In this document: positions 21,766-28,030 of the stretch, in pieces
Layout of the letters: the number at the start of each line of letters is the position of its first letter
Numbering within the stretch: the stretch's first letter is position 1
From: Escherichia coli
GTDB taxonomy: Bacteria > Pseudomonadota > Gammaproteobacteria > Enterobacterales > Enterobacteriaceae
Direction: 5' to 3' (one strand)
Assembly: GCF_013122565.1 (NCBI RefSeq)
Contig: NZ_CP053258.1
Length of the DNA: 64,000 nucleotides
The notes under the pieces: generated by a model
The model's database searches: none
What the model was told of the DNA's origin: nothing
Seen by the model: the letters and a program-made list of their open reading frames with translations, nothing else
Translations under genes and position numbers: made by a program

Positions 21766-23834
21766 GTCAGCTTGATGACACCATCCTTGATGCGCTGACA
21801 CACGTCACTTTCCCAAAGGGGTTTGTGTCAGCAGAGCCAACACCAATTGTCACCGTTGAGGATGTTGATTACCCGATCTGGCACGTTGATGCGCTGGTCG
21901 TTGGTAGCGGCGCAGCAGGATTACGTGCGGCAGTTGAACTTAAACGCCGCCAGCAAAATGTGCTGATCGCTACCGCCGGGTTATATATGGGGACGTCGGC
22001 ATGTTCTGGTTCCGATAAACAGACACTGTTTACCGCCGCTACCGCGGGCAACGGCGACAACTTCACCAAACTGGCAGAGGCACTGGCGAGCGGTGGGGCG
22101 ATGGATCACGACACCGCTTATGTCGAAGCGGTAGGTTCTCTGCACACTCTAGGCGGGTTGCAATATCTTGGTCTGGAATTACCGGAAGATCGCTATGGCG
22201 CGATTCTTCGTTATCAAACCGACCATGACGAAGCTGGGCGTGCAACCTCGTGTGGGCCGCGTACCTCAAGGTTAATGGTGAAAGTGCTGTTGGAAGAAGT
22301 ACAGCGCCTCGCCATTCCAGTGTTGACCAGTGCAACAGTGATTAAACTGCTGCATCAGCGTGACGAAAACGGCGAAGACCGCGTGGCAGGGGCAATCCTC
22401 GCGACCGGTCATCGCGCCCATAACCCATGGGGGCTGGCAATTGTGACTGCGCCCAATGTGGTACTGGCAACGGGCGGACCGGGCGAGCTTTATCGCGACA
22501 GTGTTTATCCACATAAATGCTTCGGCTCGCTGGGGCTGGCGCTGGAGGAAGGTCTGACGCTAACCAATCTGACCGAAAGCCAGTTTGGTATAGGCACACC
22601 GCGCAGCACGTTTCCGTGGAATTTGTCCGGCACCTATGTGCAGGTGATCCCGTATATCTATTCCGTGGATGCTGAGGGTAACGAGTATAACTTCCTCGCG
22701 GATTACTATCGCACCACCCAAGAGCTGGCTTCAAACATCTTCCGTAAAGGCTATCAGTGGCCGTTCCACGCCACGCGGGTAATGGATTTTGGCTCCAGCT
22801 TGTTAGATATGGCGGTGGCGCAAGAACAGCAACATGGTCGTCTGGTGTTTATGGATTTCAATCGTAATCCTGAAGCGGTGCCTGGTGATCTACCCTTCTC
22901 ATTAGATCGACTGGACGACGACGTTCGCGCGTATCTGGAAAATAACGACGCTCTGGCACCATCGCCCATCGAACGGCTGCAACGAATGAATCCGCTGTCT
23001 ATCTCGCTGTATAAGATGCACGGTTACGATCTCACCACGCAGCCATTGCAGTTTGCCATGAATAATCAGCACATGAATGGCGGCATTGAAGTGGATATCT
23101 GGGGACAAACATCCCTGCCCGGTTGTTTTGCAGTGGGAGAAGTAGCCGGTACTCACGGCGTTACCCGACCTGGCGGCGCGGCGCTGAATGCCGGACAGGT
23201 TTTTGCCGTGCGTCTGGCGCGCTTTATTGGTTGCACACAAAAGCGGTCTGTTGAGGAGGATGTCGCGCAGCTGGTAGCCTCATCTCTGCATATAGTCAGA
23301 GAAGTTATCGCTCAGGCACTGGCAAACGAGAACGGAATGGCGCTGGTAACGGTGAAAGAAAAAATCCAGGCGCGAATGTCTGATTACGCTGGATTTATTT
23401 GTCATGCCGATAAAGTTCGTCACGCCACCCGTGACGCCCTGCTGTTAAGTGAGTTTGTACAACAACACGGTTTGACCATCAAACATGTTGGCGAAATTGC
23501 CGAACTATTTATGTGGCGGCATATGGCACTGACTTCTGCCGCCATATTGACACAATTGACGCATTATATTGACGCAGGTGGCGGCAGTCGTGGGGCGCGG
23601 ATAATTATTGATCACTATGGGGAAGGTCTACCACAAACTCGACAGGGTGCAAAAGAAAAATGGCGTTTTAGATTGGAGTCTGAAAATGAAAGAGAATCAC
23701 GAGCAACGATTCAGCTTAACAATGGAGAATTTATAATAAATAAAAACAAGATACGTCAAATAATCAATTTCAAAAATAATTATTTTGAAAAAAATTGGCC
23801 GGAGTTTCTCCTTGGAGAAATCTATATAAAATAA
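21762..23834 (+). CDS. FAD-dependent oxidoreductase (fumarate reductase/succinate dehydrogenase flavoprotein-like), with unusual AT-rich C-terminal extension
   Basis: N-terminal dinucleotide-binding motif VVGSGAAGLRAA; 690 aa; ATGA start/stop overlap with upstream CoA-transferase. Confidence 0.8.
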   Translation: MSQLDDTILDALTHVTFPKGFVSAEPTPIVTVEDVDYPIWHVDALVVGSGAAGLRAAVELKRRQQNVLIATAGLYMGTSACSGSDKQTLFTAATAGNGDNFTKLAEALASGGAMDHDTAYVEAVGSLHTLGGLQYLGLELPEDRYGAILRYQTDHDEAGRATSCGPRTSRLMVKVLLEEVQRLAIPVLTSATVIKLLHQRDENGEDRVAGAILATGHRAHNPWGLAIVTAPNVVLATGGPGELYRDSVYPHKCFGSLGLALEEGLTLTNLTESQFGIGTPRSTFPWNLSGTYVQVIPYIYSVDAEGNEYNFLADYYRTTQELASNIFRKGYQWPFHATRVMDFGSSLLDMAVAQEQQHGRLVFMDFNRNPEAVPGDLPFSLDRLDDDVRAYLENNDALAPSPIERLQRMNPLSISLYKMHGYDLTTQPLQFAMNNQHMNGGIEVDIWGQTSLPGCFAVGEVAGTHGVTRPGGAALNAGQVFAVRLARFIGCTQKRSVEEDVAQLVASSLHIVREVIAQALANENGMALVTVKEKIQARMSDYAGFICHADKVRHATRDALLLSEFVQQHGLTIKHVGEIAELFMWRHMALTSAAILTQLTHYIDAGGGSRGARIIIDHYGEGLPQTRQGAKEKWRFRLESENERESRATIQLNNGEFIINKNKIRQIINFKNNYFEKNWPEFLLGEIYIK

Positions 23835-23937
23835 ACGCCTTTTAAATCGGTAGCTATTAAATAAATATTTTATGATTTGCAAAATTCACGCTTTTACATT
23901 GTGAGTATTTTCTATTGATAATATCAAAGGTTTAATC

Positions 23938-25218
23938 ATGAAAAAAATCAAGCACTATAGGTGGCATATTATCGTCTTAATATGTTTCATCACTGTAATT
24001 AATTATTTGGACAGAACAGCATTAGGCGTGGCCGCGCCCACAATAATGCAAACGATGGGGATAACTAAAGAGCAATATTCATGGGTTGTCAGTGCATTCC
24101 AGTTAGCATATACAATTGGACAACCTGTAATGGGATTCTTTATTGACCTTATCGGTCTGAAATTTAGCTTTTTCATTTGCATTATAATCTGGGGACTTGC
24201 CACTATGGGGCACGCATTAGCGGGATCCTGGCAAGGTTTGGCCTTTATGCGTGGCCTGATGGGAGTAAGTGAAGCCTCCGTCTTTCCCGCAGGGATAAAG
24301 ACTGTATCGACGTGGTTTCCTGCTAAAGAACGCGGTATTGCTGCGGGATTCTTCAACACGGGTACATCTCTTGGTGCCATGCTTGCTCCACCGCTTATTG
24401 CCTGGTGCATAATGTTCCATAGTTGGCAATTCGCATTTCTGGTTTCTGGCTGTCTGGCATTATTTGCGGCAGTGATGTGGTTTATCTTTTATAAAGACCC
24501 CAAAGATGCCAAAGGACTTTCTGAAGAGGAAAGACACTATATAGAGTCTGGGCAAGAAAAACATCTTGATTCTAATAAAAGTAAAAAAGCAACCATTCTT
24601 CATGTTATTAAAAAACGCAATTTCTGGGGTATTGGCATTACCCGTTTCCTGGCAGAACCAGCTTGGGGAACAATCAACTTTTGGGTACCTATATTTTTCG
24701 TTGAAACATTGCATTTCAGCTTAAAAGATATAGCAATGTTTATCTGGCTCCCGTTTTTATTAGGTGACTTGGGTTGTTTATCTAGTGGTTTTATCGCTAA
24801 GTTTTTTCACGATCGCGGGGTTAGCCTTCTTAATGCACGAAGAATTACATTTACATTCGCTGCAACAACGATGATGTCGATTGGTTTGGTTAGCATCGTC
24901 ACTAATCCGTACATTGCTGTATTACTAATTAGTATCGGTGCATTCTCACATCAATGCCTATCTACTGTTGTTGCCACTATGGGGGCCGATCTTTTTGAAA
25001 AAGAAGAAGTCGCAACAGTAGTTGGATTATCGGGAGGGTGTGGATATACAGGGCAACTGATATTTAATATATTCATTGGTGTATTCGTTGCTGCAATTGG
25101 CTTCTCGACATTCTTTGTGATACTTGCCTTCCTGGATATTATTGGTGCCATTATTTTATGGTCTGTAATTAGACCACCGAAACTTGTTGAACAAACAAAT
25201 TTAGTAACACAATCGTAG
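23938..25218 (+). CDS. MFS transporter, anion:cation symporter (ACS)-like, probable organic-acid permease
   Basis: 426 aa, 12-TM pattern, N-terminal YLDRTALGVAAP motif. Confidence 0.85.
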   Translation: MKKIKHYRWHIIVLICFITVINYLDRTALGVAAPTIMQTMGITKEQYSWVVSAFQLAYTIGQPVMGFFIDLIGLKFSFFICIIIWGLATMGHALAGSWQGLAFMRGLMGVSEASVFPAGIKTVSTWFPAKERGIAAGFFNTGTSLGAMLAPPLIAWCIMFHSWQFAFLVSGCLALFAAVMWFIFYKDPKDAKGLSEEERHYIESGQEKHLDSNKSKKATILHVIKKRNFWGIGITRFLAEPAWGTINFWVPIFFVETLHFSLKDIAMFIWLPFLLGDLGCLSSGFIAKFFHDRGVSLLNARRITFTFAATTMMSIGLVSIVTNPYIAVLLISIGAFSHQCLSTVVATMGADLFEKEEVATVVGLSGGCGYTGQLIFNIFIGVFVAAIGFSTFFVILAFLDIIGAIILWSVIRPPKLVEQTNLVTQS

Positions 25219-25269
25219 TTTTTATTTTTACCTATAGAATTTTAATCGAAAAAAAATAAAGGAAAGATT

Positions 25270-25749
25270 ATGTCTCAAACAGAAATTATTCTTCCTTCAG
25301 GAAGAGAACTTACTCCAGGTGAATATGGTTATGCCAATCTGGAACCTGGCGATCACTACCAGACTCCCGGTCTTAACGTAACAGAGTCACAGATTGTTGC
25401 TTTTGCGGGGATAAGCGGTGATTTTTTCGATGTTCATATGGATGATGAATTTGCAAGGGAAAAAGGATTTCCAGGACGCATTGCCCACGGTCTGTTAGGT
25501 TTAGCATTGACGGACGGCCTGAAGAATCGTTCTATTGTACGTTTACGTGCAGTTGCTACATTAAACTGGAACTGGTCATTCTGTGCACCATTATTGCCTG
25601 GAGATCATATTCACGCCGTTATTACTGTTGTTAAAAAACGCCCCACCAAACGTGAAGACCGAGGCATTGTGACTTTTGCTTTACAATTGTTTAATCAACA
25701 TGGAAAGATAATACAGCGAGGCGAAACTCTGCTGATGATGATGCAATAA
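25270..25749 (+). CDS. MaoC-like (hot-dog fold) dehydratase / enoyl-CoA hydratase
   Basis: 159 aa; GRIAHGLLGLALTDGL hot-dog motif; AGGAAA RBS. Confidence 0.8.
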   Translation: MSQTEIILPSGRELTPGEYGYANLEPGDHYQTPGLNVTESQIVAFAGISGDFFDVHMDDEFAREKGFPGRIAHGLLGLALTDGLKNRSIVRLRAVATLNWNWSFCAPLLPGDHIHAVITVVKKRPTKREDRGIVTFALQLFNQHGKIIQRGETLLMMMQ

Positions 25750-25868: not shown

Positions 25869-27137
25869 CTAAATTGACGACCTGAATGCCTCTGCCATTA
25901 ACTCTTGCTCACGATCAGGTAATCTAAGACGCTCGGCAATAGTTTGCCACTGACTGACAATCCCTCTAAAATTAGCAATAATGTCATCAGCTTCCGTCAA
26001 ACTAAGTCGAAAATACTCTGCAACTTCTCTAGCTAATTCCAAATCAAGTGCATTATCATTTTCCGTAATATTAAGCTTTAAACCGTCAGATCTGGAAACA
26101 GGATTCAAATCATATGCTTCAGAAAGCCGCCAACCTTTTCCCGGTATCAAGATATATCCATGATTACGTAAATGATCATCGGTATTAGAAACAAGAATAT
26201 TAAAAACAATTCTGGACCAGAGTTCTTTAAGGTCAGTATTGGTCTGCGCTCCGTGCCTGATAAGAACATCTGCTAATTCCAGATAACTTACACCTGTAGA
26301 GGCATCTTCACCATCCTGATGTCTGGTTAGTGTCATAGCCGAAGCAAAATGCAGACGCCTTCCCGCATTAGTGCGGTCAAAACGACGAACCATAAAACAA
26401 TGGTAATTGCTGGCAAATTTATGCGCCTGAGCAGGTGCAACATTCAGTCCACAGCCAACAGCAAGCGCATTAACGACCATTTCCCATCCACCAACATCAT
26501 ACTCATCTTTTGCACTGGGAAATTTAGCGATGTAAAGATGTCCGGCTTCATCAACCACACTGGCTTTTGGACGTGCACCCCCTAATGATCCCCCCGGAGC
26601 GATTAGCATTCTTAACCATTTTTGCCCCATGAGTTCTTTATTATCAGGATCTTCTTCAATTGCCCGGCTAGCCCTTTCCAGACTCGCTATTTCGGTAAAT
26701 GGTGGGGCTGCAACATTAATGCGGTTATCAAGAAACTCTCCAGCGTCTTCACGTTTGTATCGAAGAGCCCCAACCCGATAAAGATCATGAACACCTAATA
26801 GATAGTCAGACTCATAAAGGTGGGAGTCTTTATCAAATAACCCATCTCGAATATCCCTCTCAAAACGACGCTTCATTAGCATACGCCCCCAACGATCCGG
26901 GCAGGAATCACTAAACGCACCAAATTTATCCTTTGGAGGAATTGGGTACTGTGCTCCCTCATACAACATTATTTCAGGATCTAACTGAATGAAATTAAGT
27001 GCACGATCTGCAAGCGCCTTTTTATCGTACTCAAACTCAAATATCTCACGCGCCCGAGTGCGACGACTGTGTAAATAACCAATACGCGCAGGACCATCCA
27101 GGCCTTCCCAATCCGCATACACTCCGATTAATGCCAT
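25869..27137 (-). CDS. HipA-family serine/threonine kinase (type II toxin-like)
   Basis: 422 aa; P-loop-like GGSLGGARPK and catalytic NTDDHLRNHG motifs in HipA order; AAGGA RBS. Confidence 0.8.
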   Translation of the reverse strand: MALIGVYADWEGLDGPARIGYLHSRRTRAREIFEFEYDKKALADRALNFIQLDPEIMLYEGAQYPIPPKDKFGAFSDSCPDRWGRMLMKRRFERDIRDGLFDKDSHLYESDYLLGVHDLYRVGALRYKREDAGEFLDNRINVAAPPFTEIASLERASRAIEEDPDNKELMGQKWLRMLIAPGGSLGGARPKASVVDEAGHLYIAKFPSAKDEYDVGGWEMVVNALAVGCGLNVAPAQAHKFASNYHCFMVRRFDRTNAGRRLHFASAMTLTRHQDGEDASTGVSYLELADVLIRHGAQTNTDLKELWSRIVFNILVSNTDDHLRNHGYILIPGKGWRLSEAYDLNPVSRSDGLKLNITENDNALDLELAREVAEYFRLSLTEADDIIANFRGIVSQWQTIAERLRLPDREQELMAEAFRSSI

Positions 27138-27150
27138 AATTAATTTCCTT

Positions 27151-27642
27151 TTATCGGTTTTTTATCGGTTTTTTTATCGGTTGTAATAGTGCAGCAAGAG
27201 AGGTTGACGTTTCCCCTGGAATAGTTGGCGTTGAGTCTTTTGCCAGTGCTGTTAAATCCGTGGTGAGATGACCTTCTTTCTCGCGTTTCGTCTGAAATGA
27301 GGCTGTCTGAATCCCTTCTTCATTCTTAACTGATGAACGAGAAAGCCCTCTTTTTTTAATCAAACGGGAATCCTGGAGCTGATGCCCTAAGGCGTCTTCA
27401 GCTGCAAGCTTATTTAAATCCGTTTCCAGGCCCAAAACCTGCATCACAGACAAATATGCCCCTATCGTGACCCCTGCACTTCCTGCCTCCAGAGAACGCA
27501 ATGTGATTGGCGACATCCCTGCACGCTCAGCAACTTGCTTTGCGGTTAGCTTACGTCGTAAACGAGCAAGTTTCAGACGCTCACCAAATTCACTAAGCAT
27601 CTGATTCGTATAAGGGAGTAACGGTGCTGTTTTTTTACCCAT
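27151..27642 (-). CDS. XRE-family HTH protein (HipB-like putative antitoxin) with long low-complexity C-terminal tail
   Basis: 163 aa; HTH ~residues 16-75 ([23 protein letters not shown]); 13 bp upstream of kinase gene on same strand. Confidence 0.75.
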
Positions 27643-27663
27643 AGTGATAATATTTTATCTTTT

Positions 27664-28000: not shown

Positions 28001-28030
28001 GCAAAACGCCGACCAATGGTCGGCGTTTTT
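28001..28030. terminator. Intrinsic terminator downstream of rplI (rpsF operon)
   Basis: Stem aacgccgacc/ggtcggcgtt with 4-nt loop, flanked by A-run and T-run (bidirectional capable). Confidence 0.8.

Follow-up and report, generated by a model that had tools for sequence, protein, structure and literature searches.

A probable slippage variant of peptide-repeat DNA at the hipB-hipA junction of an Escherichia coli HipBA-like module

A HipBA-like module beside rplI and its described relatives

In type II toxin-antitoxin systems, the C-terminal segment of the antitoxin usually becomes ordered on the toxin. The HipBA module of E. coli K-12 comprises an XRE-HTH gene directly upstream of, and tightly coupled to, a gene coding for a full-length HipA-fold kinase, together with palindromic upstream operators and an antitoxin with a flexible C-terminal tail; the last 16 residues of K-12 HipB (88 aa), which end in Trp, are disordered even with HipA, dispensable for binding and constitute a Lon degron (PMC3376134). 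A kinase domain related to the one considered below is found in HipBST and in YjjJ/HipH, the latter being a natural single-chain HTH-kinase protein (PMC8262856). Among solved structures, the nearest to the HTH protein considered below is that of HipB from Pseudomonas fluorescens 2P24 (PDB 9u9g).

The locus analyzed here lies in a 64-kb stretch of E. coli DNA (hereinafter the window) and has the following features, in which the designations antitoxin and kinase are putative and derive from homology and gene order:

25869..27137, minus strand: HipA-family Ser/Thr kinase gene, 422 aa, intact, putative toxin (Pfam HipA_C, E-value 8e-47)
27138..27150, minus strand: spacer of 13 nt separating the stop codon of the HTH gene from the ATG of hipA; it reads AAGGAAATTAATT on the coding strand
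27149..27182, coding strand minus: tandem repeat of three identical copies of TTTTATCGGTT (repeat search, 100% identity)
27151..27642, minus strand: XRE-family HTH gene, HipB-like putative antitoxin, 163 aa (Pfam HTH_31/HTH_3)
27158..27163, minus strand: run separating units 2 and 3, read as T6 on the plus strand and A6 in the coding sequence
27169..27175, minus strand: run separating units 1 and 2, read as T7 on the plus strand and A7 in the coding sequence
27646..27659, no strand assigned: palindrome GATAA-N4-TTATC, probable operator, ending 3 nt before the HTH start codon
27738..27751, no strand assigned: another GATAA-N4-TTATC palindrome, located 109 nt upstream of where the HTH gene starts

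The arrangement of the pair is that of K-12 HipBA, with a co-oriented HTH gene directly upstream of the kinase gene (a gap of 13 nt in the window), putative upstream operators and a flexible tail on the predicted antitoxin. The kinase carries the HipA_C domain, and a multiple alignment of 27 paired homologues, the window included, showed that GGSLGGARPK, DDHLRNHG and YD-N-P are invariant; the window shares every invariant column of this alignment, these kinase motifs among them. In a fold search its model matches the full-length HipA fold (Shewanella, K-12) over ~470 columns. Its sequence identity to K-12 HipA is 16-17%, and a phmmer search with the kinase as query against the PDB sequences recovered only HipT structures, with K-12 HipA absent at E ≤ 1e-3. 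These HipT matches, along with a weak match to the NCBIfam YjjJ equivalog (44.3 bits, against a cut-off of 401), point to a kinase domain related to those of YjjJ/HipH and HipBST; however, the module differs from both in having two genes, a kinase with an N-terminal subdomain and no HipS.

The HTH protein is organized as an HTH domain with a long helix over residues 10-94, followed by a disordered stretch (99-144) that links it to a tail of the conserved form TSxSLAALLxPIKKPIK. At 163 aa, with a disordered linker of ~45 residues, it contrasts with the 88-aa K-12 HipB; likewise, where K-12 HipB has the Trp-ended degron, the subfamily represented in the window has the conserved LAALL-KPIKK tail, which ends in GN or NR and lacks Trp. 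Residues 1-98 match PDB 9u9g (E-value 2e-29; 62-63% identity in the fold match), of whose 153 residues only ~77-85 align, as would be expected if the C-terminal half were disordered when the protein is free. The tails of Pseudomonas HipB proteins are rich in K, T and P, without the KPIKKPIK repeat.

Immediately upstream of the HTH gene, the proximal palindrome at 27646-27659 is probably an operator. Its 14-mer, GATAAAATATTATC, is identical in the Serratia and Atlantibacter loci, at -17, and its placement leaves the HTH gene without space for a conventional Shine-Dalgarno sequence. Further on, a perfect 13-bp inverted repeat at 28003-28029, followed by a minus-strand T-run, lies just downstream of rplI; it is likely the terminator of the rplI operon and would part that operon from the hipBA-like promoter region.

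The module adjoins rplI-rpsR-priB-rpsF and occupies the same position, at ~94% identity, in about 1046 of 5426 complete E. coli genomes (roughly a fifth), carriers including UTI89, CFT073 and ST131 strains, in which it is already annotated as a 'type II toxin-antitoxin system HipA family toxin' with an HTH protein. Homologous HTH-hipA pairs are widespread in Gamma- and Betaproteobacteria; for family-wide junction and tail statistics and for the paired alignment, we used a scan of species-representative genomes, which yielded 80 loci, all from genera other than Escherichia. Our literature search retrieved no paper on this E. coli locus or on PDB 9u9g, and the accessible part of the HipA phylogeny paper PMC8262856 does not name the locus. 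On the far side of hipA, the window has an ORF for a MaoC-like dehydratase (25270..25749) between an MFS transporter gene and hipA, a context shared by E. coli EC23HZZ201. When window positions 22327-25749 were compared with positions 1-2815 of an E. coli ST80 region (L001), the MFS gene and its upstream region proved only 79% identical, against 96.6% for the hipBA-rplI-rpsF side; this looks like a recombination or replacement boundary beside hipA.

The repeat and its length alleles

The three copies of TTTTATCGGTT begin at 27149, 27160 and 27172 on the plus strand, with a spacing of 11 and then 12 nt, and in coding-strand form the unit reads AACCGATAAAA. Tandem Repeats Finder assigned 27149-27182 a period of 11/12, ~3 copies and a score of 59-61. 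The 9-mer TTATCGGTT is present on the plus strand at 27151, 27162 and 27174, all adjacent, and nowhere else in the 64-kb window, where 0.63 occurrences would be expected by chance against the three observed. On the coding strand the HTH gene ends CAA CCG ATA AAA AAA CCG ATA AAA AAC CGA TAA, such that the repeat encodes the basic KPIK-KPIK tail of the HTH protein and the stop codon sits within the third and last unit. The original prediction had described a ttatcggtttt-type repeat occurring three times with a 1-nt variation in spacing, together with its coordinates, its encoded peptide and a distance of 13 bp from the end of the HTH gene to the kinase start; a re-reading of the sequence bore out all of these, the spacer being 27138-27150.

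All the aligned E. coli relatives have two units, exactly one 11-nt unit fewer than the window, and in rare relatives the homopolymer at 27169..27175, A7 in the window, is A6 or A8. The alleles recovered were as follows:

Two units, A7 (canonical): protein and junction end ...KPIKKP[I/L]KGN-TAA-TT-ATG; a single one of its protein variants is on at least 1000 contigs
Two units, A6: ...KPIKNR-stop, 159 aa; E. albertii, E. coli EC23HZZ201 (L099) and one metagenome contig
Two units with A8 or with an additional C: the HTH gene reads in frame into hipA; L012-L014, P0146 and L123
Three units, A7+A7: in frame, ...KPIKKPIKKPIKGN, 167 aa (+KPIK); five contigs, among them L007
Three units, A7+A6 (window): ends NR, 163 aa; two contigs, the NCBI genome (WP_171459940.1) and the Logan assembly of SRR11451224 (L015)

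The canonical allele predominates: the span has its length of 270 nt in 58 of 59 evenly sampled full-length E. coli matches (269 nt in the remaining one) and in 29 of the 30 best full-length E. coli matches, and two units with A7 are found in 26 of 28 metagenome contigs. The A6 allele of E. albertii is listed in 96 index blocks. The NCBI and Logan assemblies that carry the window's allele are identical over 1774 nt (100% over hipBA); both probably come from one strain and possibly from the same reads.

The length changes are spread over different backbones: there are 0 substitutions between the A8 allele and an A7 backbone, the two A6 lineages (E. albertii and E. coli) are separated by >40 substitutions, and the two three-unit alleles by 51 substitutions over 762 columns, which led us to reject the idea that the window's allele derives directly from the in-frame three-unit allele L007, a shared ancestry of the third unit being unsupported. 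The changes are thus independent events, and independent length alleles at one site mark it as a genuine slippage hotspot, albeit with low allele diversity. Accordingly, the original prediction that the repeat is slippage-prone holds, with A6, A8, +C, +12-nt and +11-nt alleles on different backbones; as several length alleles share the site, the repeat number is not invariant across relatives, and the comparison it called for shows that the number does vary, though the variants are rare. It also anticipated the two properties that the repeat could alter, namely the antitoxin C-terminus (...KNR in the window versus ...KGN in the two-unit allele) and the spacing to the kinase start (13 versus 2 nt).

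Relative to L001, its nearest two-unit allele, the window's HTH protein has the same length of 163 aa and retains KPIKKPIK, while the terminal GN is replaced by NR; the NR-stop ending stems from the frame shift introduced by the A6 run, which has one A fewer than the in-frame three-unit allele. The bases equivalent to spacer positions 27138-27150 are, in two-unit alleles, the last codons K-G-N-stop of the HTH gene. The hipA Shine-Dalgarno AAGGA, inside the spacer at 27146-27150, keeps its 8-nt distance to the ATG and is now untranslated; the frame of hipA relative to the HTH gene goes from -1 with two units to +1 in the window. Across 67 HTH-hipA pairs the stop-to-start gap is -4 (an ATGA overlap) in 45 and +2 in 13, with a maximum of 9; the 13-nt gap of the window is therefore beyond the range of its relatives and may affect the HipA:HipB stoichiometry.

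The CCGAU of each unit is complementary to AUCGG in hipA codons 4-5 (27125-27182, coding strand), and in the predicted mRNA folds a unit base-pairs with the 5' end of hipA through a stem of 5 bp. We considered a role of the repeat in mRNA structure and rejected it as too weak, the difference in minimum free energy between the alleles being <1.5 kcal/mol and the predicted unpaired probability of the Shine-Dalgarno changing from 0.89 with two units to 0.69 with three.

As to the state of the toxin gene, hipA is truncated in 14 of 31 loci with the canonical allele, and in L002-L004 and L006; the lesions are frameshifts or internal stops, and products of 168 and 195 aa recur. In E. albertii (L009-L011) and E. 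coli EC23HZZ201 it is a stub of 39-81 aa, leaving the HTH gene as an orphan with the A6 allele. Close to half of the Escherichia copies sampled are pseudogenes, and decay of the toxin gene is under way in many lineages of E. coli. Truncation is found in all nine loci with frame-disrupting alleles (A6, A8, +C), against the 14 of 31 canonical ones; Fisher's test gave p = 0.006 for the first eight frame-disrupted loci (before L123). This association, which draws on ~4-5 lineages that are not independent, is consistent with the tail being needed, and bears indirectly on whether the kinase is toxic and neutralised by the HTH protein. Both three-unit alleles have an intact hipA of 422 aa. The A8 and +C alleles, in fusing the HTH protein to the kinase, mimic the single-chain layout of YjjJ/HipH, and hipA is truncated downstream in every case.

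Constraint on the encoded tail and the junction

The peptide is conserved well beyond Escherichia. The homologues in Salmonella, Serratia, Pectobacterium and Brenneria end ...LAALLKP[I/L]KKPIKGN, and the first three of these genera keep both KP[I/L]KKPIKGN and a junction in which the stop codon is followed by 2 nt and the ATG. Their codons (CCA/CCC/CCG, AAG/AAA, GGT/GGC, TGA/TAA) are synonymous with those of Escherichia; consequently, they have neither a perfect repeat nor an A7 run, and the perfect 12-nt repeat with A7 produced by CCG-ATA-AAA-AAA-CCG-ATA-AAA is seen in Escherichia only. The persistence of the peptide and the junction in the face of synonymous codons argues for selection on the protein tail and on the overlapping hipA Shine-Dalgarno, which is contained in the K-G-N codons (AAA GGN AAY). 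Taken with the tight gaps in the 67 pairs, the conserved peptide and junction indicate that two units with tight coupling are ancestral.

Within the tail, an alignment of 47 homologues has L149 invariant and T145, L152, L153 and P155 at least 90% conserved, whereas the linker (~100-144) is variable. An AlphaFold2 model of the HTH protein alone has residues 10-94 folded and 99-144 disordered, with block-mean pLDDT values of 55 for 141-150, 62 for 151-160 and 46 for 161-163. In a model of HipA joined to the HTH protein by a (GGS)10 linker, the HTH block means are 69 for 139-148, 79 for 149-158 and 38 for 159-163, with a beta-bridge and a short helix at residues 144-150; this model was built from 27 paired sequences only, and the gain in pLDDT is moderate relative to the nearest block of the HTH-alone model. 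The comparison suggests that residues 149-158 gain order in the presence of HipA and that the last five residues remain disordered. We infer from the models that LAALL-KPIKK is the tail segment engaging HipA, the final residues being flexible. Such ordering would fit the usual pattern of type II antitoxins; unlike the tail of K-12 HipB, part of the window's HTH tail is predicted to be ordered with HipA.

Origin and meaning of the window's allele

We consider it highly probable that the window carries a slippage variant of peptide-repeat DNA in a HipB-like tail, a near-neutral derived allele with no programmed switch. On this account, the repeat is the DNA image of the (KPIK)2 peptide in the conserved basic tail of a HipB-like XRE antitoxin, and the last codons of the tail double as the ribosome-binding site of hipA. 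Because the Escherichia codons CCG-ATA-AAA-AAA make a perfect repeat with an A7 run, replication slippage occasionally alters the unit number or the run length. The three-unit, A7+A6 allele of the window could have arisen by the gain of a 12-nt unit followed by the loss of one A, or by a misaligned 11-nt gain; since a repeat with a 12-nt period does not simply yield a gain of 11 nt in one step, this path is necessarily a reconstruction. The final residues would be constrained mainly by the overlapping Shine-Dalgarno, and translational coupling and the toxin:antitoxin ratio would be affected no more than modestly by the window's change. The change from GN to NR falls in the part of the tail predicted to be flexible, and the overlap with the Shine-Dalgarno accounts for the conservation of GN; most likely, therefore, the allele is near-neutral.

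The phase-variable genes of Haemophilus and Neisseria are simple-sequence-repeat contingency loci, and the window resembles them in having a tandem repeat and homopolymer within coding sequence, so that slippage alters the frame. One could therefore read the repeat and the A-run as having been selected for frequent switching of the tail or of hipB-hipA coupling, and thereby of HipA activity and persistence; several independent length alleles in one site of ~40 nt, and their frame consequences (tail truncation with A6, an HTH-HipA fusion with A8 or +C), speak for it. However, the tract is far shorter than the long tracts of such loci (A7/A6; 2-3 units of 11-12 nt); in place of many alleles, a single one is shared by at least 93% of the loci; the DNA repeat is unconserved, with other genera keeping the peptide in the absence of a perfect repeat; and the frame-disrupting alleles appear only where hipA is already dead, which looks like decay. 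Short tracts, one dominant allele, a repeat absent elsewhere and frameshifts confined to decayed loci together make phase variation unlikely, and we give a contingency locus a very small chance of being the right description, sporadic slippage at a mutational hotspot being the better one. A bolder version, in which the junction acts as a low-frequency switch, with slippage or a change from A7 to A8 making a HipH-like HipB-HipA chain and unit gains resetting frame or coupling so as to tune kinase dosage and persistence, strikes us as highly improbable. The same fusion might instead be made without any change in the DNA, if -1 frameshifting or transcriptional slippage at A AAA AAA yielded a HipB-HipA product from the two-unit allele, with the window altering the frame. 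In two-unit alleles hipA is indeed in the -1 frame with no intervening stop, the genomic A8 and +C alleles do encode HTH-HipA fusions, and single-chain HTH-kinase proteins of the YjjJ/HipH kind occur naturally (PMC8262856). Yet the slippery run is replaced by AAG AAA or AAG AAG in Salmonella, Pectobacterium and some Serratia, the downstream structure predicted is weak, falling short of a -1 frameshift site, and the genomic fusions all come with a truncated hipA; recoding of this sort is exceedingly doubtful.

An entirely different interpretation would place the function of the repeat in the DNA itself, with three GATAA/TTATC units about one helical turn apart serving as additional half-operators to which the HipB-like repressor, or some other protein, would bind. 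The upstream palindromes have the form GATAA-N4-TTATC, and the CCGATAA in each unit holds the same 5-nt half-site. However, the units are direct rather than inverted repeats; Serratia and Atlantibacter, with an identical upstream 14-mer, lack half-sites throughout the final 45 nt of the gene, as does Salmonella; the GATAA arises from the codons CCG-ATA-AAA and is a weak 5-nt match; and copies of the 9-mer with one mismatch number 20 in the rest of the window against 14.3 expected, which is at the level of chance. We dismissed this idea as a codon coincidence, given that the half-sites are missing in genera with an identical operator, and it has next to no prospect of being correct. Nor do we put more weight on an assembly or sequencing error as the source of the third unit: the window's allele does come from what is probably a single strain, but the separate Logan assembly of SRR11451224 agrees with it, an exact 11-nt insertion is atypical of sequencing error, and a related three-unit allele occurs independently in five other contigs, so that an artefact would be most surprising.

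In sum, the window's variant is a commonplace microsatellite polymorphism within the coding sequence of a familiar type of operon, the hipBA-like one; it probably has little functional effect, and its importance beyond annotation is small. What the locus does tell us is that, in this HipB-like subfamily, constraint acts on the tail at the protein level and the ribosome-binding site of hipA overlaps the tail's last codons. Escherichia codon usage has turned the hipB-hipA junction into a small mutational hotspot. The rare alleles that have resulted (+KPIK, an NR end, a truncated tail and an HTH-HipA fusion) constitute a natural series for probing the tail and stop-start coupling.
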